Source: a virus
Lineage: Duplodnaviria; Caudoviricetes
DNA: 25,339 nt
Strand: one strand, 5' to 3'
Virus record (IMG/VR): IMGVR_UViG_3300009686_000018
Span: 1-25,339 of that record
In this document: in pieces, positions 714 to 15,811 of the stretch
Layout: each line of letters begins with the position of its first letter
How positions within the stretch are numbered: position 1 is the first letter of the stretch
Notes under the pieces: model-generated
Databases searched by the model: none
What the model was told of the DNA's origin: nothing
Seen by the model: the letters and a program-made list of their open reading frames with translations, nothing else
Made by a program: the position numbers and the translations under genes

Positions 714-1937
714 TTAAGCAAATTTCTTAGTGATAGTAACTAAGCTGTTTTTGTCAACAACTTTGCCATCTACTAACATAATTGCTTTTGTTATTTGATC
801 ATCTGTAATATTGTCTTCATATCTTTTGATAGTTACATTATAATTAGTGTTAAGTACGTAATCCTTAAAATTAAACAGGAATGCAACAACAGTATCGGCT
901 GCTATAACTGCTCCTAAACTAGTCATATAATCATTTAATACAACAGTTCTTCCAAGTAGCGTTCTTTCAGGTCTGCCGTTAATTCCATAATTTACTCTAG
1001 CAATTGGTTGTTTTTGTAAATCTACCATTCCGATAAATTTCATAAATGTTTTTTTAGTCATGCCCCAAACAGCATCAGATTCATATGCAAGTGGTAGAGC
1101 GGCTTCGGCATCAACTAGCGTATTGTAAGTAGGTTCTACAGCTACTGCTATATTTACATTTTGTCCTACAATTACTGTTTCTACAAGGATACCTTTTGGT
1201 TGTCCTATACCTGTTCCGCTAATGATAGCTTGCTCTAATGTTTTTGTCATTGCTTCAGCAATATTATTAATTATAGCAGTTTCAAACACTCCTAAAGTAA
1301 CAATGCTAGTCTCAAAAGATACTGAAACGGCACATCTTAATTTAAAATAAGTAAATACTATAGTTCCAGTAGTCTTTTCTTGTTTATCACTTGTAGCGCC
1401 TTCTGCTACCCATGTGGCAACTGGCTTAACTGTCGATGTCGGAATTGCCAAACCACCCTTATATGATGTTTTTGTTACAAGTGGAAGAATCATTCCAGTT
1501 GATTCCATTTTTTCAATTATTTTTTCTAACACTGTCGTAGGAATTACAGAACCTACTTCACTTGTAGTTGTATTAGCATCTACGTTTAAAAACTTTTCTG
1601 GAATTGCAGTGCCTTTTACTACATTGTTCATAAATGCTTTTCTATATTCTACTGAATTATAAACATCTAAATCATTTACAACTGTGATGTTTTCAAATTT
1701 ATCTATAACCGTGCCCTCCATTGATATATTTCCTAATTCAGTAACAATTACTGATTTAGGTTCATTGCTCATTGCGTTTAAATTAGCTTGTGCTTTTGTG
1801 ATATCATTCCATTGTCCATCAAGTGTTTCAACATCTTTTAGTTTTGCATTTGCTTCCTCAACTTTTCCTCCGTTAATTAAAACTTGTGCTTCATTCATTA
1901 AACCTAGTCTTTTAGCCATGTATTCTTGTTTATTCAT
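714..1937 (-). CDS. major capsid protein, HK97 fold, with N-terminal coiled-coil scaffold (delta) domain
   Basis: EYRKAF..., VIPTT, ATWVAEG, AIISGTGIGQPKGIL, TLLGRTVV motifs; after the protease gene. Confidence 0.95.
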   Translation of the reverse strand: MNKQEYMAKRLGLMNEAQVLINGGKVEEANAKLKDVETLDGQWNDITKAQANLNAMSNEPKSVIVTELGNISMEGTVIDKFENITVVNDLDVYNSVEYRKAFMNNVVKGTAIPEKFLNVDANTTTSEVGSVIPTTVLEKIIEKMESTGMILPLVTKTSYKGGLAIPTSTVKPVATWVAEGATSDKQEKTTGTIVFTYFKLRCAVSVSFETSIVTLGVFETAIINNIAEAMTKTLEQAIISGTGIGQPKGILVETVIVGQNVNIAVAVEPTYNTLVDAEAALPLAYESDAVWGMTKKTFMKFIGMVDLQKQPIARVNYGINGRPERTLLGRTVVLNDYMTSLGAVIAADTVVAFLFNFKDYVLNTNYNVTIKRYEDNITDDQITKAIMLVDGKVVDKNSLVTITKKFA

Positions 1938-2637
1938 TTATTTCTCCCTTCAATTTTAATAGATTTAGTTGTGCTTTTGTTTTTTGCATTAAAAAATCCG
2001 CTTCATTGTTATTTACAATGTTCGGATTCTTGATTGTACTTCTTATTTTTTCTATAGCAGCATATGGTATTCCGTTAGAGCTATTAAAAAACCCTTTTAA
2101 TGTTTGATTTTTAGTATCAAACATTACTTCGTCAACAAATTTATTCTTAACAGCATCTTCGGCTGACATCCAAGTTTCGTTATCCATTAATTTTAAAAGT
2201 TCCTTGTCAGTCATGCCTGTTTTTTCTTTATAAGCATTCGCTATAGATTGATTAGCGGTTTTTAAAACATTTGCGCTATGCTCCATGTCTCTATAGTCAC
2301 CGTGAGTACCGCTAGATACATTATGAATCATAAATAAACCTGTAGGAGTTATTTTGCTTTTAGCTGCCATAGATATTACGCTTGCAGCACTAGCGGCCAA
2401 GCCAACAATGCTAATTTCTACATTTCCATTATAGTTTCTGAGCGCTGTGTATATTTCAGAGCCTGCAAATATATCACCGCCTCCACTATTTATATCCACC
2501 TCTATATCTTCACCGCTAGCCTCGTTAAGTGACTTACTTACATCTTTTGGACTTGTAGTTTCTATTCCTAGCCAGTCATAAATCCATTTGTCACCACTGG
2601 ATACTATATCTCCCCTAATACTAATTTTCTTTGCCGT
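1930..2637 (-). CDS. prohead maturation protease, ClpP-like (S14); start probably ACG at 2637 (ORF track uses TTG at 2655)
   Basis: INSGGGD, GLAASAASVI (catalytic Ser), FMIHN (His), ETWMSAEDAV. SD AAAGGAGGTGA with GGAGG 7 nt before ACG-GCA-AAG. Confidence 0.9.
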   Translation of the reverse strand, partial: TAKKISIRGDIVSSGDKWIYDWLGIETTSPKDVSKSLNEASGEDIEVDINSGGGDIFAGSEIYTALRNYNGNVEISIVGLAASAASVISMAAKSKITPTGLFMIHNVSSGTHGDYRDMEHSANVLKTANQSIANAYKEKTGMTDKELLKLMDNETWMSAEDAVKNKFVDEVMFDTKNQTLKGFFNSSNGIPYAAIEKIRSTIKNPNIVNNNEADFLMQKTKAQLNLLKLKGEINE

Positions 2638-2657
2638 ATTCTCACCTCCTTTCAACT

Positions 2658-4169
2658 TTATATGTCATCAACATTTAATGCTTTATCGTCTAGATATATA
2701 TCTGCGGAAATTTTCCTAGTATCGCTTCCATATTCGCTGATAATGTCTTCTAGATTTTCATTTATTCCATCAAACTCAATGCCTTTTTCAGCGCACCAGT
2801 CAACTGCTTCTTGCAACAAATCGTCTGCTCTGCATGTCCACAAGATTATTCTGTTCCCATCTTCTTTTAATTTCTTAACATAGGCTGTAACATTTGTTTT
2901 TTCCCATCCTATTTTAGGATACAAATTATTACAAAGAGTTCCATCAAAATCAACTGCATATACTTTAGATTTTTTGCTATTACTCTTATTTCTAAAAGCA
3001 TTTGCTTTGTTTTTTGGCTCTGACGTTGGTCTGGTATCCAATCGCCTTACATATTCATCACCACCATCTCTAGGAGCATAGTTCATGATTTCTCTTACTT
3101 CATTTGGATTAAATATTCCTAACTCAACGAAAGATGATAATCCTAACTTCGTGGCCATACTTGCAAAAGTTAAACTTGAACTTTCAAATACTATTTTATT
3201 TCCAAATCCTCTCTCCCTTCTTGTAAATAATTTTCTAGTGTATTCGCTGGCCATTTGCATTGCATCAGGTTCTATTCTAGCTTCGTAATAACTAATCCAT
3301 TCATCTTCATTGTAGCTTGACTGTACTATTTTTTTATTTGTGTTAAAAAACGAATAAATTCTTTCAGTCGTACGATCTGTTTGTGCTGCATTAGGTACAA
3401 AGTCTTTAGGTTCTATTCTTGTTGCCGTTGCTTTTGCATCAGTACCAGCTGCTCCAAATGTTTCAGTTTCTACACTTAAATAATTATCAGTAAATTCCTT
3501 TACGTTTTTCTTTAAGTCTTCTGGCCTTAACGAAGTATTGTATTGCAACAACCATCTGATTATTCCGCTGTTTTTAATTGCTTTAATCGTGCCTTGGTCT
3601 ATTATACTAACTACATTCATTAGGCTTGTTAATGCTAATCCTGGTGGCTCTCCAAAGATATCATTACTATTATAATCATCCCTAAGATGTATTACTTCCG
3701 TGTATGGAAATGTCGCCGTTTTTCCGTTTTGAAAATAAAACTTTAGAAATAAATCTCCTGTCTGATTGTAAATTGCTTCAGCAGTCATACAAGGTATTGG
3801 ATATAATTCAACCGGATAACCGTTATCATCTTTTATAATCAAAATAAAAGCATTATTATTTAAAGCAAGCTGGCTTGTGACTTTTTCTTGTAACATTTGT
3901 CCCGACATGTATGGATTAGGGTCTTCTAACAAAAATCTTATATAGGGTTCTGGATTAGTCTTAATTCCCATCGCATCATTGCGTATATGTTTAGGAATTA
4001 ACTTCCCTATGGCTTTTGTTCTAGGTCTAATGCAGGCTCTTACTATATCGCTTTCATATAGTTTGCCATTCCAGGCATAAAAGCCGTTGCCTTTATCAGT
4101 TATCATTTTATATCTTGCTACCGAAGTTATATTATTAAATGCATTTTTGAAATTATTCAATATTCCCAA
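2658..4169 (-). CDS. HK97-family portal protein fused to a C-terminal HAD-superfamily phosphatase domain
   Basis: Portal motifs (PNPYMSG, NNNAF, VIHLRDD...DIFG, PNEVRE...GGD...RRLDT), then a basic linker and AVDFDGTL / WTCR / RK..AD.YLDDKA; no stop between the two parts. Confidence 0.92.
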   Translation of the reverse strand: MGILNNFKNAFNNITSVARYKMITDKGNGFYAWNGKLYESDIVRACIRPRTKAIGKLIPKHIRNDAMGIKTNPEPYIRFLLEDPNPYMSGQMLQEKVTSQLALNNNAFILIIKDDNGYPVELYPIPCMTAEAIYNQTGDLFLKFYFQNGKTATFPYTEVIHLRDDYNSNDIFGEPPGLALTSLMNVVSIIDQGTIKAIKNSGIIRWLLQYNTSLRPEDLKKNVKEFTDNYLSVETETFGAAGTDAKATATRIEPKDFVPNAAQTDRTTERIYSFFNTNKKIVQSSYNEDEWISYYEARIEPDAMQMASEYTRKLFTRRERGFGNKIVFESSSLTFASMATKLGLSSFVELGIFNPNEVREIMNYAPRDGGDEYVRRLDTRPTSEPKNKANAFRNKSNSKKSKVYAVDFDGTLCNNLYPKIGWEKTNVTAYVKKLKEDGNRIILWTCRADDLLQEAVDWCAEKGIEFDGINENLEDIISEYGSDTRKISADIYLDDKALNVDDI

Positions 4170-4187
4170 TTTATATTCTCACCTCCC

Positions 4188-5870
4188 TTAGATGATATTC
4201 ATATAGTCTTCATAATTTCTTTCCAGCACAACATAAGCATCTAGCAAACTTGCTAATCCGTCTATGCGTTTCCTTGGCTTACTTGTTTTAACAGGCTGGA
4301 TATTATCGTTTTTATCTATTTCAACTGCTGTATTTGATAAACACCATTTTAATATTGGATTGTTATTATAATTAACTTTTTTAGCATCCAGGTCAGCGCC
4401 TAAATTTTTCATAGGACCAGATAAAGTTTTTTTACCCTGAATTACTGCTTCCATGCTTTCCTTGCCAAAATAACCCCTCATTTCTTCTACATAATATTCA
4501 GCGCTCCATCCATCGTATCCATGATGTGGAATATAAATATCCTTTTCATTTTGTACTTCTAAAAACCATTGAGCCACATATTTATAATGTACCTTGTTTC
4601 CTGGTGTTGTTCTTAACCAACCTTGATCTCTCCAAATATCATAAGGGATTTTATCTTCTCTTACTCTTAACTCCAACAAATCTTCTGGTAACCAATACAT
4701 TTGCATTACATATACAGTTTCATCTCCCGGTACTTTAAATATTACCGTTCCGCATGTTAAATCCGTGGTTGATGCTAAGTCGGAACCACCTATTCCATAG
4801 CGTGGCTTTAGTAATTCTAAGTTATAAGTAGCTGGATTGTTTAGTTGTTCAAATGTTAGCCACGATTCGGAACTTGTTTCTCTTATGTTGAACTCTTTAC
4901 ATACTAGATTCTTTACTAATAGTGGGTTTTCTTTGGCTTTGTTTACTTTTGCGGATAAAGTTTTAAGGTTTTTTATAGTTCCTAAGCCTGGATTAGCTTT
5001 TTTCCACATTTTTTCATCTGTCCACTCTTTCCTGCTATCCAACTCATAAATAAAAGCTATAAATCTTTCATCTTTATAACCATTATCATCAAAATATCCA
5101 TTTATAACTCTCTCGGCTTCATCATACTTTAAATCATATATATCTTCTCTAATAGTACCTGCTGTAGATGTTATAAATACAAGTGGCTGCTCTCTAGCTC
5201 CCACTCCATCAGCTATAATATCATACAAAGCCTTTCCGTTCTTCCATTGGTGTATTTCATCCATTAGGGCACCGTGGATATTGAGACCGTCCAATGTATC
5301 GGAATCACTTGCTAGTGGTTTATAAATTCCATCATTAAAGTCACTCACTAATTCAGCTACAAGAGACTTTATTCTCTTCCTCAGAGTTGGTGATTTTCTT
5401 ACCATTCTTTTAGCTTCTAACCAAATTATTTTAGCTTGGTCTCGTTTGGATGCAACTGCATATATTTCCGGACCTGCTTCATTATCTCCAACTTGCAGGT
5501 ATAACCCAACACAAGATGCAAGCAATGATTTGCCATTTTTTTTACCTACAATTAAAACTGATTCTCTGTATTGTCTATTACCCTCAATATCAATAAATCC
5601 AAAGATTATCGCAAGTAAAGCTTTTTCCCATAGTTCAAGTATGACTGGTTTACCGCCCATCTTACCCTTGGAGTGCCTGCAAAAGTTTTCTATAAACTCA
5701 ATTATATGATTTGCTCTTGCGTGGCTAAAAAAAAATTCACTATTATTAGTGAGATCATAATTTACTTTTTTATATGTTTTATATATTTTCCTTGGTACAA
5801 TTTCTTGACCACTTTCTATTAAATGCCAATATTCAGATATAGGATTATAGTCAGCAGGATATTTAATCAT
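4188..5870 (-). CDS. terL: terminase large subunit (Terminase_1 type)
   Basis: GKKNGKS Walker A, ALMDE Walker B, ITSTAG, nuclease-domain GSDLA and RIDG. ATG at 5870 overlaps the terS end (track starts at GTG 5879). Confidence 0.95.
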   Translation of the reverse strand: MIKYPADYNPISEYWHLIESGQEIVPRKIYKTYKKVNYDLTNNSEFFFSHARANHIIEFIENFCRHSKGKMGGKPVILELWEKALLAIIFGFIDIEGNRQYRESVLIVGKKNGKSLLASCVGLYLQVGDNEAGPEIYAVASKRDQAKIIWLEAKRMVRKSPTLRKRIKSLVAELVSDFNDGIYKPLASDSDTLDGLNIHGALMDEIHQWKNGKALYDIIADGVGAREQPLVFITSTAGTIREDIYDLKYDEAERVINGYFDDNGYKDERFIAFIYELDSRKEWTDEKMWKKANPGLGTIKNLKTLSAKVNKAKENPLLVKNLVCKEFNIRETSSESWLTFEQLNNPATYNLELLKPRYGIGGSDLASTTDLTCGTVIFKVPGDETVYVMQMYWLPEDLLELRVREDKIPYDIWRDQGWLRTTPGNKVHYKYVAQWFLEVQNEKDIYIPHHGYDGWSAEYYVEEMRGYFGKESMEAVIQGKKTLSGPMKNLGADLDAKKVNYNNNPILKWCLSNTAVEIDKNDNIQPVKTSKPRKRIDGLASLLDAYVVLERNYEDYMNII

Positions 5871-6389: not shown

Positions 6390-7104
6390 CTACAATTCAA
6401 CTTCATCAAAGTATTTATTGATAATATATTGCTGCAACTCTTTATCTTCTCTTGTATTATCTCTCGTACTTCTTCTTATGCATTCTTCTTTGTCCGTGTC
6501 AATATGTATTAGCTCTGCCTTTAATCTTCTTGATAGTTCACTTCGTTGTGACCTAGTTGGTAGCATACATATAATCCACGCTCTATCATAATGATGTACT
6601 CGTTGTTCTATAAGATCATATATAAGTTCTCTTATGTCTAATGCAAATGCAATTGTATCTTTGCTGTCTTCTCCTAATGATAATGCTGACCTAATATAAT
6701 CTAAGTCAACTACTATATCATGCTGGCCTTTATTCTCTTTTACATAGCTTGTCTTACCGCTTGCTGGCGCACCCCATACAATAAATGTATTCTTATTCTC
6801 TATTATATTTCCATCACTATTAAACATCAATCCCTCTCTTATTGTTGCTAAATTCTTTCCAAATGTTTTTCTGTTATGGCAGTCCAAACAAAGGTATTGA
6901 AAGTTCTCATTGCTCAATGTTACATCAGGATTATTTATATTGTCAGGTGTTATTTCTTTTTTATGGTCCACTATATAACCTAACCGCTCTTTGCACTGTT
7001 GGCACATACCGCCATCAATAGATACTCTATCTGCTATAAAGGATTGTCTGCATAACTTCCATGTCTTGCTATTATAAAACTTCTTCGCAAAAGGGACGTG
7101 CCAT
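6390..7104 (-). CDS. terminase-associated HNH endonuclease fused to a P-loop kinase/ATPase (AAA_33-like); start frame ambiguous
   Basis: FYNSKTW...CQQC...IVDH...N...LCLDCHN, then FIVWGAPASGKT, DLD, EECIRR..RD. The best SD points to ATG 7104, one base out of frame with the body (see findings). Confidence 0.85.
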
Positions 7105-7188
7105 AGCATCACCTCCTTATCTAATTGTCTAATTTTTAAACGTGCATTTTTAAACACGAAATGAGCTTGCTCCATCGCACCAGTACAA

Positions 7189-9093: not shown

Positions 9094-10530
9094 CTAAACT
9101 GCTACATTTTCAATATTTTCTTCTTGATAATTGGCTTCTACTAATGCCTTTGCTAATGGAGGACAAACACTATTACCGCACTTTGCAGTTTGTTCTGTGG
9201 TTGGGTATGGATTGCCGTTGCTATCCCTATTAATTATGTAATCATCGGGAAATCCCTGTGCCTTAAATAATTCGTGCGGTTTCAACATTCTCATACCTAT
9301 GTCAATAATTTGATAATCCTCACCCTTAATTGTTACAAGTCCAAATCTATCTTTAGTAGTAATGGTATGCAACGGACTGTTAATTGTTTGTCCTATGTCA
9401 GCACCATAGTATTTCAATAAAAATGCTGTTACTAAATTCGATTTATTTACTGTTGTTGAAGTTGCTAATGGTTTATTCAACTCGTGTCCTGTTGAAGTAT
9501 GAAACTGTCTGCTAATAAATGCTGTTATAAGCGCCTGATGGTCTTTGGTTGTCAGGGTATGAAGTGGTTCTTCTAAATTGCTTCCTGCCCCTTCATATGT
9601 TCCGGCATAATATTTACTTATAAAAGCTGTAACTAATCCGAATCTATTTGCAGTTGGTATTGTTGCTATTGGTTCATCAAGACCACTTCCCCTTATCTCT
9701 TCTCCCTGAGCTGTGTAGTAATGCTGTAAGAACATTGCTTTTTCATCTAGCACAAATGGCTTATCTGCCTCTGTAACAAATTTTCTTATTCCTTTTGCTA
9801 TTCTTTCAAGTGTGTTTTCTGCTAATGGTTTCTTTCTGGTAAAGATACTAGGACAAGATATGCTCCAATCAATACACTCTGCTGCCGTTCTCCATGGCTT
9901 TAACAATCCGCATCTAACTTCAATACCTTCTGGATTTCCATGAGTTGGTTCAGGCCATATAATTTGTTTGCCGTCGCATCTTGCTATCATAAAGAATCTT
10001 TTTCTTGTTGTTGGAGCTCCATAATCACATGCTCGTAATTCTCTAAATGATACTTTATAGCCTTGTTTTTCAAGTGCTTTAATAAATAAATGAAACGTCT
10101 CTCCTTTTTTATTTGGGTCTGGATATAAGTCGCCTTTATCATCTGTAATTAATGGTCCCCAGGTTTGAAATTCCTCAACATTTTCAAGAATTATTATCCT
10201 TGGATGAACTGCTTTCGCCCACTTAACAACTACCCACGCTAATCCTCGAACATTTTTGTCTACTGGCTTACCGCCTTTAGCTTTTGAAAAGTGTTTGCAA
10301 TCAGGTGATGCCCACATTAATCCTACAAGTTGTCCTTGTGTCGCTTGTAATGGGTCTATATCCCACACATTTTCGATGTAATGTTTTGTGTTGGGATGAT
10401 TAACTTCATGCATTTTTATTGCCATTTCATCATGATTGATGGCTATGTCCACCGAACGCCCTATTGCCATTTCTATTCCTGTACTGGCACCACCTCCGCC
10501 CGCAAACGAATCAATTATAAGTTCTCTCAT
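9094..10530 (-). CDS. C5-cytosine DNA methyltransferase (phage type)
   Basis: Motif I DSFAGGGGAS, catalytic SPDC, ENV, GAPT.RKR, RML...E...AQGFP, GNSV.P; SD GGAGG. Confidence 0.95.
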   Translation of the reverse strand: MRELIIDSFAGGGGASTGIEMAIGRSVDIAINHDEMAIKMHEVNHPNTKHYIENVWDIDPLQATQGQLVGLMWASPDCKHFSKAKGGKPVDKNVRGLAWVVVKWAKAVHPRIIILENVEEFQTWGPLITDDKGDLYPDPNKKGETFHLFIKALEKQGYKVSFRELRACDYGAPTTRKRFFMIARCDGKQIIWPEPTHGNPEGIEVRCGLLKPWRTAAECIDWSISCPSIFTRKKPLAENTLERIAKGIRKFVTEADKPFVLDEKAMFLQHYYTAQGEEIRGSGLDEPIATIPTANRFGLVTAFISKYYAGTYEGAGSNLEEPLHTLTTKDHQALITAFISRQFHTSTGHELNKPLATSTTVNKSNLVTAFLLKYYGADIGQTINSPLHTITTKDRFGLVTIKGEDYQIIDIGMRMLKPHELFKAQGFPDDYIINRDSNGNPYPTTEQTAKCGNSVCPPLAKALVEANYQEENIENVAV

Positions 10531-10544
10531 TATTCCTCCGTTTA

Positions 10545-10573
10545 GGAGCTATCAAGGAATACTTGACAACTCC
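10545..10573 (-). promoter_or_regulatory. 12-bp stem-loop just upstream of the C5-methyltransferase SD
   Basis: Minus strand GGAGTTGTCAAG-TATTC-CTTGATAGCTCC; both imperfect pairs are G-U on this strand; no U tract. Confidence 0.5.
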
Positions 10574-10596
10574 ATTATTTATTGGTATTTCAATGT

Positions 10597-11199
10597 TTAT
10601 AAGTTGTAATCTAGTTTATTGTAGAAACTATCGTACTTTTCTATATAATCATATCTATCTTTGAATACATCGTATATGCTTGTACTACCAACGCTTAATT
10701 GGCTTATTCCCATTATGAACTTTGATGGTATAACTAACACTTTCTTAATTTCTTCATCCGTTACACATACACAGATAAACAAATCGCAATTATGATTATA
10801 TTTTTCTAAATTAAAGGTATGAAATTCACCTTTTGGACCTCTATACAGATTTGATACTTTAACATCAATTTTTATATTTAAATTTACAAGTAGGTCGTAT
10901 GGATGTTTCATTGACATTCTTTCTACTTCGTAACCTTTAGTTTTTAACAATTCGGCTGTTCTTGTTTCGTATTCTCTTCCTAATTTAGTTTCTGAATCTT
11001 TTATATAAAGATTTAATTTTTCAGCCCAATTCTTAAAACCTCCAGTTTTAGATATATGTCCAGTCAAAGAAGCCGACTGCATGACTTTTTCTATTTCACT
11101 TCTTGAAGGCATCCTGTTTAAATTAAGAGCTTTTATTACTTTTTCTAATTCATCCTTTACTTTTTCATCTGTCCATTTTATTCCGTGTGTATATCCCAT
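10597..11199 (-). CDS. putative endonuclease: N-terminal homing-endonuclease-associated helical repeat plus PD-(D/E)XK domain
   Basis: WTDEKV...MPSRSEI...GGFKNWAEKLNL, then GREYE...HPYDLLVN..IKIDVK. Confidence 0.65.
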   Translation of the reverse strand: MGYTHGIKWTDEKVKDELEKVIKALNLNRMPSRSEIEKVMQSASLTGHISKTGGFKNWAEKLNLYIKDSETKLGREYETRTAELLKTKGYEVERMSMKHPYDLLVNLNIKIDVKVSNLYRGPKGEFHTFNLEKYNHNCDLFICVCVTDEEIKKVLVIPSKFIMGISQLSVGSTSIYDVFKDRYDYIEKYDSFYNKLDYNL

Positions 11200-11237
11200 A
11201 TAATGCTCCTTATTTTACATATTCGTTGAAATTACAG

Positions 11238-11687
11238 CTAAAAAGGTATTTCATTTTCTAAATCGTCATCTACTGGCTGGAATATATCTTCACCATCATC
11301 TGGAAAATCGTCTAAATTATTTTCTTGTGGCTTAGCCTGTCCCTCTGTTTTGCTACCTATAAACTCTACTTTATCCGCTATAACATCAGTTGTATAAACC
11401 TTGCTTCCATCATCTTTTGTGTAACTTCCTGTTGATATTCTGCCGTGTACTGCGCATTGTTTTCCTTTTGCAAGATAATTAGCACAATTTTCTGCTATCT
11501 TACCAAAGACGGTTATATAAATAAAATCTGCTGTTGGCTTACTCTGCTTAATGGCCTCTTGTTTCTTGTCTCCAAATAAATCCTTATCAACAGCTAAACT
11601 CATTTTTGTTACCGCCATTCCTGTAGCTGGTATAAATTTTAGTTCAGGATCCTTGCATAACCTTCCAATAAGTACAACATTATTCAT
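11238..11687 (-). CDS. ssb: single-stranded DNA-binding protein
   Basis: MNNVVLIGRL.KDPEL, ADFI, YLAKG, acidic tail ending IPF. Confidence 0.95.
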   Translation of the reverse strand: MNNVVLIGRLCKDPELKFIPATGMAVTKMSLAVDKDLFGDKKQEAIKQSKPTADFIYITVFGKIAENCANYLAKGKQCAVHGRISTGSYTKDDGSKVYTTDVIADKVEFIGSKTEGQAKPQENNLDDFPDDGEDIFQPVDDDLENEIPF

Positions 11688-12322
11688 TGTTTTTCCTCCA
11701 CCCTTTCAAACTCTATAACCCATAAATAACTTTCTCCTGTGCAATCTGGATATATCTTAAAAATTGTTTCTAAAAATTCTGCTCTATTAGTAAATCCTTC
11801 TGCTAAAGCCTGTTTCTCTGTTATATCTTTTATTTGTTCAACTCTAACATTTATAACTTTTAGAAATATTCTTGCTGCTGACTTTGACATATGGATTGAT
11901 GGATGCCACTTAATAAACCCGTCTCTATCCTCACATAATTTGCAAGTGATATGTTTTTCAACACCTTTTGGTAAGCAAGTTCCATCTTCTGTGCATCCTG
12001 TGCAAATATTATCTGCTTTGTAATAGTATCTGCCCCTACTTTCACACCATGTTTCCCTAACCCAGAGAATATCTCCAACTTTGTAACGAGGTTTAGCATA
12101 TTGAATATGTCCTCCGTATGAATCAATTCCCCAACCATAAAAACCTGTATTTTTACTATCTGTACTACTAGTAACAAATCCGAGTTGAGATTGATGTTTT
12201 TCGTCTGGCTGTGGCTTTATAACTCTTCTTGTAACCGTTTTTCTTCCGTCCAACAGTGCTTTTGTCATTTCTGTGTTAAACAATATTGGCTTTGCTACTT
12301 TTAATAATTCTTCTCTGTTCAT
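11684..12322 (-). CDS. ASCH/PUA-like domain phage protein
   Basis: KPILFNTEM..ALLDGRKTVTRRVIK, GDILWVRETW, W.PSIHM....ARI.L...VRVE, WVIEFE. SD AGGAGGT before ATG 12322 (track starts at 12346). Confidence 0.8.
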   Translation of the reverse strand: MNREELLKVAKPILFNTEMTKALLDGRKTVTRRVIKPQPDEKHQSQLGFVTSSTDSKNTGFYGWGIDSYGGHIQYAKPRYKVGDILWVRETWCESRGRYYYKADNICTGCTEDGTCLPKGVEKHITCKLCEDRDGFIKWHPSIHMSKSAARIFLKVINVRVEQIKDITEKQALAEGFTNRAEFLETIFKIYPDCTGESYLWVIEFERVEEKQ

Positions 12323-12349
12323 TCTTCTACCTCCTGAAAATTCCATTTC

Positions 12350-12538
12350 CTATCCTTTTTTTATTTTTTTACTATCATAAGTACAATGTATTTTAATCCA
12401 CCACCATGTCTCAATAAATTCATGCATATCACCTGTGGCAATTCCAATAAAGAATTGTTTAAATAAATTTTTAAACAGCCAACCTATGTGTTTCATATCT
12501 CGTTTATCAAAACTCCAAATTCTTTTTAATATTTTCAT
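12350..12538 (-). CDS. hypothetical protein
   Basis: 62-aa co-oriented ORF with purine-rich SD (AAGGGG). Confidence 0.6.
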   Translation of the reverse strand: MKILKRIWSFDKRDMKHIGWLFKNLFKQFFIGIATGDMHEFIETWWWIKIHCTYDSKKIKKG

Positions 12539-12540
12539 TT

Positions 12541-12708
12541 CTATCCCCTTTTCATTTGAAATCTTAAATTTCCATTCCAGCCCAATCCGTCCATAAAACT
12601 TTTATACTTTTGATTTGCAAGTTCACGCTCTATTTTAAATTTTCTATAGTCTTCGCAAGTGTCGTGGCAAGCTAATTTTCTTTCAGGGCAATTTATACAT
12701 TTGTTCAT
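12541..12708 (-). CDS. small Cys/His metal-binding protein (55 aa; not in ORF track)
   Basis: MNKCINCPERKLACHDTCEDYRKFK...; ATGA overlap with the methyltransferase stop; SD GAGGT. Confidence 0.7.
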   Translation of the reverse strand: MNKCINCPERKLACHDTCEDYRKFKIERELANQKYKSFMDGLGWNGNLRFQMKRG

Positions 12709-13742
12709 ATAGACCTCTCAAATAAACTTATTTGAGCTTTTTCTTCTTTAAGTCTTTTTTCTGCCATATTGCAATATTCTTTGTTTAATTCAAATCCAAT
12801 GAAATTTTTATTATGTTTTATTGAAGCTAATGCGACAGTACCACTTCCCATGAACGGATCTAAAACAATTCCTTTCTCTTTACAACCAGCTAATATACAA
12901 GGCTCTATTAATTCTAACGGAAATGTTGCAAAATGTGCTTCTTTAAATGGCTTTGTAGATACAATCCAAACATCTCTTTTATTTCGTTTCTCGTGAAAAT
13001 CATATGCATTTCCTGATTTAGTTCGATTAAAAATTTCTGGATTTGCAGTATATTTATTTCCACCATATCTCGGCGCAACTGCCTTCATAACTCCGTTTGT
13101 TTTTCCATATACCCTGTTAGAACCTTTTTGATTCTCAATATCTTGTTGTAATCGCTTAACTGTGCTATTTGCGACAGGTTCAGAAATTGCTTCTGCATTG
13201 AAATAATATTTCGGTGATTTTGAAAGTAAAAAAATATATTCATGACTTTTAGTACATCTATCTTTTACACTTTCAGGCATTGGATTAGGTTTGGCCCAAA
13301 TAATATCTTGTCTTAAATACCATCCATCTGACTGCAGTGCAAATGCTACTCTCCATGGAATACCAACTAATTCTTTTCGCTTAAGATTTGCTGGTATTTT
13401 AGGCATCTTACACTGAGAACTATTTTTATTTGGTACATATACTTCTTTTTGCTTTTGGTTATTACTCCACGAACCTTTTCCACTGCCTGTATAACTATCA
13501 CCCAAATTAAGCCACAGTGTACCGTCATCTTTTAAAACCCTCTTGACCTCTTTAAAAACAGTAACTAAATTATCTACGTATTGCTCAGGAGTATCTTCTA
13601 ACCCTAGTTGTCCATCTACTCCATAATCTCTCAATCCCCAATATGGTGGTGAGGTGACACAGCAATCAACGGTTTTATCTATAATTAATCTCATGCCATC
13701 CACACAATCCATATTGTAGAAACTATTTAGTTTTAATTCCAT
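12705..13742 (-). CDS. amino (likely N4-cytosine) DNA methyltransferase, beta class
   Basis: TSPPY catalytic motif N-terminal, LWLNLGDSY, HEYIFL, HFATFP, DPFMGSGT SAM motif C-terminal. Confidence 0.92.
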   Translation of the reverse strand: MELKLNSFYNMDCVDGMRLIIDKTVDCCVTSPPYWGLRDYGVDGQLGLEDTPEQYVDNLVTVFKEVKRVLKDDGTLWLNLGDSYTGSGKGSWSNNQKQKEVYVPNKNSSQCKMPKIPANLKRKELVGIPWRVAFALQSDGWYLRQDIIWAKPNPMPESVKDRCTKSHEYIFLLSKSPKYYFNAEAISEPVANSTVKRLQQDIENQKGSNRVYGKTNGVMKAVAPRYGGNKYTANPEIFNRTKSGNAYDFHEKRNKRDVWIVSTKPFKEAHFATFPLELIEPCILAGCKEKGIVLDPFMGSGTVALASIKHNKNFIGFELNKEYCNMAEKRLKEEKAQISLFERSI

Positions 13743-14535
13743 AGGTTCCTCCTAAAATGAGCTTATTTGCTTTTATCTGTTCAAATTCTTGCTGAAGCAT
13801 AGATATTTGAATATTGTTTGCTAACTTAGAATTAAAATCATCAACATATTGTTTTTTAATTTCAAACCCATATGATTTTCTTCCTAACATTTCAGCCGCA
13901 AGTAATGTTACCCCACTACCTGCGCATGGGTCTATTACAACGTCCCCAACGTCTGTAAATATTGATATAAGTTTCTTAATTACTTTTATGCTTTTCTGTG
14001 TAGGATGTATTTTAGGCGTTTCGTTATCTCTCTCATAATCCATGCAATTAAATATCATCTTTCTTTCGTTGTTAAATTTAGGTAATTTCTCTCTGTATAA
14101 AAGCACTGCATATTCGCAATTTCCTACAACTTTCATGTTTGCTTTTAATACCTGAGCTGAATAGTTTTTTCTAAACACAAGATTGATGTAATGATTAAAG
14201 CCGTATTCCTTACCTTTTTCTATCAACATAAATTGCTGTTCAAACTCGCAAAATACAATCATGCAACCCGCTTGTCCTGTCTCTTTTGGTTCTTTTTTTA
14301 ACATTGTGCTGACAAAGTGCATAAACTCTGGTATTTTAAAATCGTTGTCAGTGTCGAAGAAAGTTGTCTTTGCTAAGTTGCTTTCACCGTTTTTATTGTC
14401 GCCGTCTTTATACCAACTCGGATTAGAAGCATAAGCATTTGTGGAAATATTATAAGGAATATCTGCTATAACTAGTTGTGCTTTAGGCAAACTATATCTT
14501 TTATAGTTCTGAAAGTGGTCTCTGTAAAGTTCCAT
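13723..14535 (-). CDS. amino (likely N6-adenine) DNA methyltransferase, beta class
   Basis: ADIPYN catalytic motif, HPTQK, DPCAGSG SAM motif, GFEI. Its SD AGGAGG is the last two codons of the upstream gene. Confidence 0.9.
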   Translation of the reverse strand: MELYRDHFQNYKRYSLPKAQLVIADIPYNISTNAYASNPSWYKDGDNKNGESNLAKTTFFDTDNDFKIPEFMHFVSTMLKKEPKETGQAGCMIVFCEFEQQFMLIEKGKEYGFNHYINLVFRKNYSAQVLKANMKVVGNCEYAVLLYREKLPKFNNERKMIFNCMDYERDNETPKIHPTQKSIKVIKKLISIFTDVGDVVIDPCAGSGVTLLAAEMLGRKSYGFEIKKQYVDDFNSKLANNIQISMLQQEFEQIKANKLILGGTYGIKTK

Positions 14536-14536
14536 A

Positions 14537-15178
14537 TTACCTCCTATATTTTATTTCAAACTCTATAATATCTTTGTTTTCTAAGCCTAATTGTGTAATC
14601 AATCTATAAAATTTACTATACAATGTTTGCTTATTTGTTTTGCTTTTGTCTGCCCATTCTGCAATAGTGAGTTTATCGTCTCCTATGGTTACAAACATGC
14701 TGTTTAGCTTATTGTTCTGCTGTTTTTGCATGCTTACCCACCTGCAATTTTCAGGACAATAGTTTCCGTCTGGGTTTATTCTATCAATCGAAACAAATTC
14801 GTCATAATTATTATTTAATGACCATTCCTTAAATTTCAAATAATCACAATTCCATTCATTGCATATTGACACACCTTTTCCGCCGTAATACATATAAGCT
14901 GGATTGTTTTCATTGTGGCATCTTTGTTTTATGCCTTTGTATATATGATATAACCGTGTGTTTGAAAAACCATGGGTTCTTACTAAATTACCTAATTTTT
15001 CACCTCTTACACAACCACAACTTTTACTTTTCCCAGATGTTAAATTATAAGCCAAAATCGTTTTTTCTTCGCCGCAATCACACTTGCATATCCAGGTAGT
15101 GTTTTTACCTTTATTTTCGCCCTCTTTTATAACGGTTAACTTTCCAAATTTTTTACCTATTAAATCTTGTTTTCTCAT
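14537..15178 (-). CDS. HNH-type homing-endonuclease-like protein
   Basis: DLIGKKFGKLTV, W.CKCDCG, SCGC, THG...TRLY...KQRC, YGG.GV.IC.EW, SIDRIN.DGNYCPENCRW...Q.NN; SD GGAGGT. Confidence 0.85.
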   Translation of the reverse strand: MRKQDLIGKKFGKLTVIKEGENKGKNTTWICKCDCGEEKTILAYNLTSGKSKSCGCVRGEKLGNLVRTHGFSNTRLYHIYKGIKQRCHNENNPAYMYYGGKGVSICNEWNCDYLKFKEWSLNNNYDEFVSIDRINPDGNYCPENCRWVSMQKQQNNKLNSMFVTIGDDKLTIAEWADKSKTNKQTLYSKFYRLITQLGLENKDIIEFEIKYRR

Positions 15179-15206
15179 AATGTACCTCCATATATTTCAT
15201 ATATTT

Positions 15207-15235
15207 ATTATATCATAGTGATATCACCATGTCAA
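15207..15235 (-). promoter_or_regulatory. sigmaA promoter for the endonuclease gene, with palindromic operator in the spacer
   Basis: TTGACA (15230-15235), 17-nt spacer, TG-n-TATAAT (-10 at 15207-15212); palindrome GTGATATCAC at 15218-15227. Confidence 0.85.
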
Positions 15236-15250
15236 CACTTTGCAAACATA

Positions 15251-15279
15251 TTGACATCATTTAAAAATTGTGTTATTAT
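15251..15279 (+). promoter_or_regulatory. sigmaA promoter for the RHH gene
   Basis: TTGACA (15251-15256), 17-nt spacer, TG-n-TATTAT (-10 at 15274-15279). Confidence 0.8.
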
Positions 15280-15300
15280 CCTATTAAGGAGTTGATATAT

Positions 15301-15447
15301 ATGGCTGTTTCAAAAATGAATATAAGAACTTTAATTACTATTCCTAAAGAACTAAAAACCAAATTAGAGCAACTTGCCGTAAGAGATGATAGGAGTTTAA
15401 ATAATTTAATAATTAAAATTCTTAAAGAATATGCCGCCCACAATTAA
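15301..15447 (+). CDS. ribbon-helix-helix (Arc/CopG-like) DNA-binding protein, 48 aa (not in ORF track)
   Basis: MAVSKMNIRTLITIPKELKTKLEQLAVRDDRSLNNLIIKILKEYAAHN: alternating beta strand, P..L...L..LA...RSLN; SD AAGGAG; own promoter and terminator. Confidence 0.85.
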   Translation: MAVSKMNIRTLITIPKELKTKLEQLAVRDDRSLNNLIIKILKEYAAHN

Positions 15448-15466
15448 TTTTGTGGGTTTATTTTTT
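15437..15466 (+). terminator. intrinsic terminator of the RHH gene
   Basis: CCCACAA-TTAATT-TTGTGGG followed by TTTATTTTTT; ends 3 nt from the stub junction. Confidence 0.75.
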
Positions 15467-15556
15467 ATAGTTATATGGGATATCTGCAATTATTAGTTGT
15501 GCTTTTGGAATGTTTTGCTTTTTGTAGTTTTGGAAATGGTCATGATATAGTTCCAT
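15458..15556 (-). pseudogene. 5' stub (32 codons) of the N6-type methyltransferase, cut off after DIPYN
   Basis: MELYHDHFQNYKKQNIPKAQLIIADIPYN-YKK*; 23 of 29 residues identical to the start of 13723..14535; own SD AGGAG. Confidence 0.9.
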
Positions 15557-15568
15557 TATTTCTCCTAG

Positions 15569-15811
15569 TTAGTAGTTATTTTTAAACTTCTCTTTTAGCT
15601 CCATCATCTTCTTGTCTATGTTGCTGTCTGTGTCAATTTCCTCTATCATATTTACATTTTCGAAATTCAATAAGTGTTGGTCTCCATTTGATATTTTAAT
15701 TAAAACTGCATTGCCCTCTTGAATTATCTCTGTTGTGTTATAAAAATTTCTTGAAGTTGATAGAGTTTTAAACCATACTTTTATAGTTGAATTACTAAAT
15801 ATTGCTTTCAT
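15569..15811 (-). CDS. hypothetical protein
   Basis: SD GAGGTG before ATG 15811; overlaps the end of the initiator gene. Confidence 0.65.
   Translation of the reverse strand: MKAIFSNSTIKVWFKTLSTSRNFYNTTEIIQEGNAVLIKISNGDQHLLNFENVNMIEEIDTDSNIDKKMMELKEKFKNNY

Follow-up and report, generated by a model that had tools for sequence, protein, structure and literature searches.

A probable non-splicing homing element that replaces the start of a phage DNA methyltransferase gene

Non-splicing homing elements that replace one end of their target gene have been described in fungi. The WHO elements of the yeasts Torulaspora and Lachancea, which have been termed a "third structural class", replace the 3′ end of FBA1, and their allele-specific cleavage has been shown (PMC7282813). 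In fungal mitochondria, the mORFs of Glomus (atp6, atp9, cox2 and nad3) carry foreign C-termini, and an Allomyces atp6 case is cited in the same paper (PMC3630166). Free GIY-YIG genes duplicated with the N-terminus of atp9 have been given a one-line mention, without a mechanism (PMC7487136). Here we describe a cassette in a phage that compares with these systems. It is a 1021-bp insert in the start of a DNA methyltransferase gene on the minus strand of virus record IMGVR_UViG_3300009686_000018 (region 13723..15556), and the interrupted gene begins again behind it. The whole stretch analysed, positions 1 to 25,339 of that record, is called the window.

Like the WHO elements, the phage cassette probably does without splicing and has a putatively independently expressed endonuclease that travels with a piece of its target gene (resistance-conferring in WHO). 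In both, displaced gene fragments begin or end near one position and the two halves of the host gene have discordant histories. The WHO elements differ in using the 3′ end of FBA1, a LAGLIDADG/intein-like zinc-finger nuclease, a diploid yeast host and tandem clusters, with cleavage shown (PMC7282813), whereas the phage cassette uses the 5′ end of a methyltransferase gene, its enzyme is HNH-type with cleavage a prediction, and tandem clusters were not observed. Because it is the 5′ end that is replaced, the cassette must supply a promoter and a ribosome site. The mORFs are alike in that a free-standing endonuclease in a coding gene brings a foreign, diverged gene end, making a hybrid gene and leaving the native end behind, but they are mostly C-terminal replacements with LAGLIDADG or GIY-YIG genes, in organelles (PMC3630166). 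In its probable mode of action the cassette resembles WHO and mORF elements, but it falls outside the WHO family.

In mycobacteriophage ShiLan, an HNH gene homing into a DNA methylase gene also shows no detectable splicing, but as described there the insertion is in frame and translated as a loop within the protein, the HNH being encoded in a different frame, and there is neither a duplicated start nor a restart (PMC11855218). The free-standing endonucleases of T4-like phages (seg/mob intronless homing, mobE in Aeh1 nrdA, mobA in gene 60) share intron-free phage homing, co-conversion of flanks and insertion in critical coding regions. They differ in cutting at a distance or splitting a gene into two reassembling polypeptides, and the available part of the source describes no replacement gene start (PMC2988022). 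No 5′-replacement case appears in the available parts of five further papers (PMC10448857; PMC12724721; PMC8096241; PMC3428280; PMC8351571), and a literature search short on subscription journals and without supplements found no publication on a 5′-replacing phage form. The initial annotation of this DNA had proposed a third strategy for homing. A non-splicing insertion with gene restart is supported, but replacement of gene ends, at the 3′ side, was already known from yeasts and fungal mitochondria (PMC7282813; PMC3630166). What is new is the 5′ polarity, the phage hosts, the Asp-Arg type of nuclease and an unusually clean set of natural alleles that are presumably sensitive and resistant.

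Our reading, to which we give a probability of about 0.78, is that the insert is a non-splicing homing element with 5′-end replacement, made up of a promoter, a gene for an HNH-type nuclease and a foreign copy of the first 30-45 codons of the methyltransferase. Judged from sequence, the restarted gene probably keeps the methylase working without splicing. The observation from which this analysis started is real: a stub, a ribbon-helix-helix (RHH) gene with its terminator, divergent promoters, an HNH-type gene, a complete methyltransferase and an AGG AGG TAA acting as Shine-Dalgarno sequence (SD) had been named, and all are present, as follows.

15458..15556, minus strand: stub open reading frame (ORF), MELYHDHFQNYKKQNIPKAQLIIADIPYN then YKK and stop; codons 1-29 of the resident methyltransferase 5′ end, ending DIPYN, with the YKK-stop from the insert
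15436..15457, plus strand: intrinsic terminator-like hairpin and T run, ending the RHH transcript (1 found against 0.3 expected in shuffles)
15301..15447, plus strand: 48-amino-acid Arc/RHH-type gene, antisense to the operon (RHH_5, E 1.7e-4, below cut-off; Arc-like repressor PHROG, E 7e-8)
15251..15279, plus strand: predicted promoter-like site for the RHH gene, TTGACA-17-TATTAT (11/12 consensus matches, sigma-70-like)
15207..15235, minus strand: predicted promoter-like site for the nuclease and restarted methylase, TTGACA-17-TATAAT with extended -10 (12/12)
14537..15178, minus strand: 213-amino-acid HNH-type endonuclease gene (phrog_374 HNH endonuclease, E 1e-64)
14540..14545, minus strand: AGGAGG, the nuclease's final two codons, which also serve as SD for the restarted gene (read from the sequence)
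14440..14535, minus strand: replacement 5′ end of foreign origin, reaching from codon 1 to codon 32 or beyond and including Ser31 and motif IV (DIPY, 14452-14463) (from identity to the empty allele L001; 3′ boundary approximate)
13723..14439, minus strand: resident body of the N6/N4 DNA methyltransferase, with motif I DPCAGSG (PF01555, E 3e-25)

The stub, which has its own SD (AGGAG, 15562-15566), and the start of the restarted gene form a direct repeat of 97 nucleotides (nt), 72% identical and 1021 nt apart. It is by far the longest of 19 repeat families in 14400-15620, and over codons 1-29 the two copies match at 63/87 nt. The end of the nuclease, AGG AGG TAA (14545-14537), lies directly 5′ of the T-ATG of the restarted gene. 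The complete restarted methyltransferase (270 amino acids, 14535-13723) has the beta-class order, with the DIPY of motif IV at residues 25-28 and the DPCAGSG of motif I late in the protein. Deleting 14449-15469, as had been suggested, does restore one gene with an open 813-nt frame, but the coordinates are not unique, since each of seven in-register 1021-bp deletions tried (7/7) gives a single frame of this kind. The break had also been placed right after motif IV; the insertion indeed follows DIPYN, but the foreign segment extends beyond codon 29, with ISTN in the restarted gene against the resident IGIN. An assembly artefact was ruled out, as contigs of three runs cover the cassette without differences (X1, whole region; X2, 14368-15499; X3, 14350-15499), two of these runs being possible sources of the window DNA. 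Two X2 contigs that skip the cassette were rejected as this phage's own empty allele; they are more distant relatives, with other letters at the joint.

Empty alleles had been anticipated, and they were found. In the sample used, the best 80 of 225 viral loci encoding this methylase, the stub, RHH gene and nuclease are missing in 80/80, and no nuclease remnant was found upstream of these 80 genes. The closest empty allele to the window, L001, shares its upstream synteny. Residues 1-29 of L001 match the stub at 29/29 amino acids and 79/87 nt, and match the window's restarted gene at 23/29 amino acids and 64/87 nt. Along the restarted gene, identity to L001 is 70/96 nt in codons 1-32 and 609/693 nt from codon 33 on (Fisher p=2e-4), and 8/15 amino acid differences over 263 codons sit in codons 1-32. 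The stub and the body are equally similar to L001 (p=0.49); the body is 97% identical to it in amino acids and is its sister in the tree. Because the stub and body match L001 and the replacement does not, the stub and body are parts of the resident gene and the new start is foreign.

A second pair of filled and empty alleles gives the footprint of the insertion. The filled locus L169 is identical to the empty L014 at 123/124 nt, from 31 nt upstream through gene nt 93, and its restarted gene differs from L014 at 36 positions in nt 1-129, then at 1 in the next 110. The element is therefore a spacer, a nuclease and about 43 foreign codons set in a resident gene. The replacement of the window is 86% identical in nt to that of L169, whereas the stubs are only 74% and the bodies 72% identical. 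The same holds among L168 (the window's own contig), L169, L171 and L173, whose replacements are mutually 77-86% identical versus 61-74% for stubs and 64-76% for bodies. In a body tree of 87 rows, which left out L021 (short) and L169 and L174 (incomplete), a single clade of cassette-bearing bodies was rejected by the approximately unbiased (AU) test (p-AU 2e-6), and 5 changes are needed for 8 cassette rows. As the initial annotation had supposed, then, the replacement 5′ end and the body do not always travel together, on the evidence of L169/L014, window/L001 and the AU test. The replacement ends are under purifying selection (pN 0.05-0.31 against pS 0.46 to saturated). The stubs of the window and of L170 encode the same 32 residues and differ at 13/96 nt, as would be expected if each came from a different, recently functional recipient.

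The cassette is a real, recurrent mobile element. The nuclease subfamily comprises 42 other clusters with 56-74% identity over the full length, after which scores drop. A metagenome scan gave 34 loci, and in 11/11 of those whose nuclease reaches 60% identity the site is this methylase gene (L168, L169, L170, L171, which is the same as L172, L173, L174, which is 99% identical to L185 over 555 nt, L175, L176 and L177). A subfamily-specific viral scan gave three loci, including a further cassette, L204 (nuclease 63% identical), as the twelfth locus at the level of at least 60%. The recurrent insertion point that had been looked for thus exists at nine distinct loci besides the window. Eight of these have a stub, a nuclease and a restarted gene, and the restarted ORFs are intact, that of L169 being cut by the contig end; the ninth, L170, is without the methylase body. 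The stub of L204 has decayed through a small internal deletion. The insertion region is just after DIPYN in one phage methyltransferase family, with left junctions at codons 29-35 in the 8 loci tabulated. Neighbouring genes include NinB, RusA, NinG, Q-like and other methylase genes and the guanine-plus-cytosine content of the loci is 32-43%, so that the cassettes sit in different phage-like contexts, at the same site in otherwise unrelated loci.

The spacers between stub and nuclease are about 70-300 nt long and mostly unrelated to one another, and most hold a -10-like element, with or without a -35. In L174 (392-544) and L176 (142-308) a -35-like hexamer (TTGCAT and TTGACA, respectively) starts at the junction of stub and insert, 17 nt before a -10-like hexamer, and uses the last host-derived base. 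In the window, the palindrome GTGATATCAC lies within the spacer of the promoter-like site at 15207..15235, and L170 retains both hexamers and the palindrome; overall, sigma-70-like promoter-like sites show no excess (7 against 7.8 in shuffles). Between the nuclease and the restarted gene, most other cassettes have a purine-rich SD-like or an overlapping stop/start junction. The nuclease of L173 (79-891, protein P0006) is fused in frame to the stub, so the host start codon could drive its translation; longer fused forms were looked for and not seen, a result of little weight.

The initial annotation had treated the RHH gene as part of the unit. An antisense RHH gene is present in 3/10 cassettes, namely the window, L170 (an 87.5% identical copy) and L169 (a different Arc-like gene), and none was found in the remaining 7/10. 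It was therefore rejected as part of the minimal mobile unit, which is the nuclease with the replacement 5′ end. From its position and family the RHH gene is likely to be an optional passenger that regulates the nuclease promoter. L170 (1211-2304) combines a window-like stub protein and RHH/promoter module (RHH dS 0.13) with a nuclease that is 72% identical (dS 1.37). Its methylase is deleted from the nuclease stop to the final ~25 codons, and another methylase lies upstream. This suggests module exchange between cassettes and a form free of the host gene.

More distant nucleases do not share this arrangement. Looking for the RHH and HNH unit in other host genes had been suggested; no restarted host gene was found in 106 distant nuclease loci. 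An upstream/downstream repeat occurs in 5/106: two are repeated Cys-rich domains, two are weak (E ~5e-4 and ~8e-4) and one is L153. The latter was rejected as a restarted gene, as it consists instead (1622-4261) of two related tandem modules, each a small regulator-like ORF, a short ORF and a distant HNH-type gene, 3′ of a terminase-like gene. A viral scan for stubs with a stop four codons past DIPYN found 0, this pattern being too narrow because stub ends vary. Among the matches listed, a single-protein and a full-alignment viral scan gave distant nucleases only, at no more than 49% identity and none in this arrangement, and a genome-contig scan gave two distant nuclease loci only. In isolate phage records the methylase occurs 77 times, and none has a nuclease above 47% identity, i.e. 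no subfamily member. A nuclease tree of the 9 cassette members has no starred branch.

The nuclease has a Cys-rich N-terminal domain, a beta-beta-alpha-like core and a helical C-terminal part, with Asp132-Arg133, Tyr140, Asn144 and Gln153 as core residues (alignment A1). Asp132-Arg133 is invariant in 42/42 aligned sequences, and Arg133 and the loop Tyr140 are each invariant in 98/98 core domains. The initial annotation had cautioned that the motif is IDRI rather than DH. The motif does differ, but DR is the family norm (109/120 homologues, DH in none, 11 unmatched by the pattern), and IDRI was therefore rejected as a sign of decay. The closest pairs have a rough nuclease dN/dS (ratio of nonsynonymous to synonymous rates) of 0.09 and 0.13, and the conserved protein is maintained by purifying selection.

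The nearest solved protein is the HNH_3 enzyme I-HmuI (PDB 1u3e), although none of the matches is significant. A profile of 98 core domains has it as its best match (E 0.1), and it comes first for a core-domain model in Foldseek (E 1.8; root-mean-square deviation 2.4 over 41 columns); this model is a strand-strand-helix with a predicted local distance difference test score (pLDDT) of 89. Features shared in the alignment are the beta-beta-alpha order and the positions of the Asp, the loop Asn and NxRW. D74-H75 of I-HmuI falls with D132-R133 and N96 with Q153, and D74, H75 and N96 are residues that we take to be catalytic. The His at the end of the first strand is thus replaced by Arg133 and Asn96 by Gln153; in addition, the core is central, behind the Cys-rich N-terminal domain, and is not intron-encoded. 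No Pfam family matched the window nuclease, a whole-protein Foldseek search gave nothing at E <=0.001, a wide whole-protein structure search gave small beta-barrel likenesses for residues 1-50 only, and a profile A1 search for solved relatives gave none. Automatic HNH names in the ESM Atlas, at 0.90, are a lead only. We infer that the nuclease cuts DNA. By analogy with PacI, in which a loop tyrosine takes the place of histidine (PMC5714182), the invariant Tyr140 may stand in for the catalytic His.

A candidate immunity mark lies at the insertion site itself. Gly31 is found in 78/80 empty genes versus 1/9 restarted genes (p=6e-9, relatedness ignored), and the codon for Pro27 is CCT in 9/9 restarts versus 33/80 empties. 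Gly31 is retained in six of the 8 stubs examined, while the remaining two are interrupted ahead of codon 31. The loss of Gly31 in restarted genes is a likely mark of immunity. Nuclease-free methylase alleles with the Ser31 or Ala31 spellings of restarted genes also occur (L211, L214, L212, which is on the same contig as L023, and L028) and are possible conversion or excision scars; the Ser31 alleles would fit such scars, and also plain polymorphism. Over codons 22-36 without codon 31, L211 and L212 match the window replacement at 38/42 and 36/42, where the best of the 78 Gly31 empties reach 35 and 34; the other two distinct Ser31 loci show no such closeness.

In the scheme that we propose, the nuclease would nick or cut an empty allele in the region of codons 29-35. 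The left end would then pair with the donor stub and the right end with the donor restarted gene, and phage or host recombination would copy the cassette in. It had been objected that no recombinase is encoded, but an Erf-like annealing protein, NinB and SSB are present in this phage outside the cassette, and these could provide the recombination. The carrier would be immune because its stub holds half of the site and its restarted gene is re-spelled there (Gly31 changed, Pro27 always CCT). The cassette promoter, with the SD in the terminal codons of the nuclease, would express the methylase; the nuclease end would supply the ribosome site, and in this scheme the methylase is therefore still made. 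Where present, the RHH protein may repress the nuclease promoter and so damp it. Repair from the replacement rather than the stub, or a stub-by-replacement excision, could give immune alleles without the nuclease.

Several points weigh against the proposal of a homing element with 5′-end replacement. The left junctions are not fixed but spread over codons 29-35. L170 keeps its nuclease with the methylase body lost, so repair of the methylase is not obligatory. In the nuclease, Arg occupies the position of the I-HmuI His, and similarity to HNH proteins of solved structure is weak (E 0.1 and 1.8). The restarted gene of L177 retains Gly31, and in a reverse search Ser31 alleles were without a nuclease in 6/6 loci, 4 of them distinct. 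The best footprint, that of L169, comes from a single metagenome contig of 1283 nt. Cassette bodies are more clustered than shuffled labels (5 changes against 7.8, with L175 and L204 starred), which argues for some spread by descent or long co-conversion. The Fisher tests also take related sequences as independent.

Other explanations have to be set against the same evidence. The cassette may be mobile with the Asp-Arg protein being a DNA-binding or regulatory protein, the unit spreading by ordinary recombination between conserved methylase flanks. The catalytic His is absent family-wide (109/120 DR), there is no Pfam HNH match for the window protein, 1/98 core domains matches HNH_3 and does so weakly, and 2/42 subfamily members match CapR, a domain described as a domesticated endonuclease (PMC8096241). 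We consider this unlikely, as it leaves unexplained why divergent phages share one target site, why L169 has a short foreign tract with that site at its centre and why Gly31 is lost; the invariance of Tyr140 (98/98) also speaks against it, a loop tyrosine replacing His in PacI (PMC5714182). The grouping of some cassette bodies (L175 with L204, starred; L171, L173 and L176 weakly) would suit a module swap, in which a single crossover at DIPYN brings in the nuclease with a complete foreign methylase gene and leaves a stub. Such a swap is very improbable: beyond nt 129 the L169 body again follows the resident L014 (1 difference in 110), the window stub and body both match L001 where the replacement does not, and one clade of cassette bodies is rejected.

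Slightly less probable again is a restriction-modification or addiction module, in which the nuclease would be paired with its cognate methylase and an RHH controller. In its favour, a methylase start or remnant directly follows the nuclease in every case and 3/10 cassettes have a divergent regulator, but the methylase is without the nuclease in 80/80 of the best loci and in the 77 isolate records, L170 keeps an intact nuclease without this methylase (though with another upstream), and a stub at a fixed codon is left unexplained. Splicing has the least to recommend it. Stop codons and a new start rule out an intein. A self-splicing intron joining stub to body, with the second start a relic, could point to conserved catalytic codons as typical intron sites, as is established, and to the 311-nt spacer of the window, whose predicted folding is better than that of shuffled sequences (z -3.4); the terminator hairpin is part of that fold, however. 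An Rfam scan of 10 loci at E up to 1 found no intron, a tRNA being its only match. Given this result, the short and mostly unrelated spacers and the purifying selection on the replacement ends, splicing is unlikely, and the left junctions vary besides, making the intron barely credible.

Under the homing interpretation, non-splicing, gene-end-replacing homing would extend from fungi to phages, in the harder 5′ direction in which a promoter and ribosome site are needed. A wider reading, which we hold tentatively and rate a little short of even, is of a phage class of gene-start-replacing homing elements driven by a histidine-less (Asp-Arg, probably tyrosine-dependent) HNH enzyme of a very abundant family, whose motifs match ~7300 viral stretches. 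On that reading, because the donor offers two templates for a cut gene start, the element would also give rise to immune alleles that lack the nuclease; the Ser31 genes L211 and L023/L212 would be examples, their codons 22-36 being closest to the window replacement. It could also lose the host gene altogether and survive on two short arms of homology, as in L170. The locus offers codons 29-35 of a widespread orphan phage methylase as a predicted target, together with natural alleles that are presumably sensitive and resistant and an empty and filled pair of near-identical sequence, making DNA cutting by the abundant phage Asp-Arg HNH proteins, and the manner of it, directly testable. It is also a warning that stubs of this kind are taken for pseudogene debris, and that a methylase gene following one is a chimera.

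The 25.3-kb record holds integrase, repressor, antirepressor, Erf-like annealing protein, NinB, SSB and portal genes, and is therefore taken to come from a temperate tailed phage; composition and gene style give the impression of a Clostridia-like host. The cassette lies within a replication/methylase module on the minus strand, where three DNA methylases are clustered (9094-13742): a C5 enzyme (9094-10530), preceded by a 200-amino-acid ORF of unknown family (10597-11199), a second N6/N4 enzyme (12705-13742) and the gene studied here. The second N6/N4 gene overlaps the end of the studied gene and is missing at that position in L001. A packaging-region HNH protein (6390-7175, minus strand) is fused to a C-terminal P-loop (AAA_33-like) domain, both Pfam matches being below cut-off. 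The portal protein (2658-4169, minus strand) has a C-terminal extension of ~110 amino acids that starts near a VDFDGT motif, matches phrog_24386 and phrog_1238 and is presumably a HAD-type phosphatase domain.

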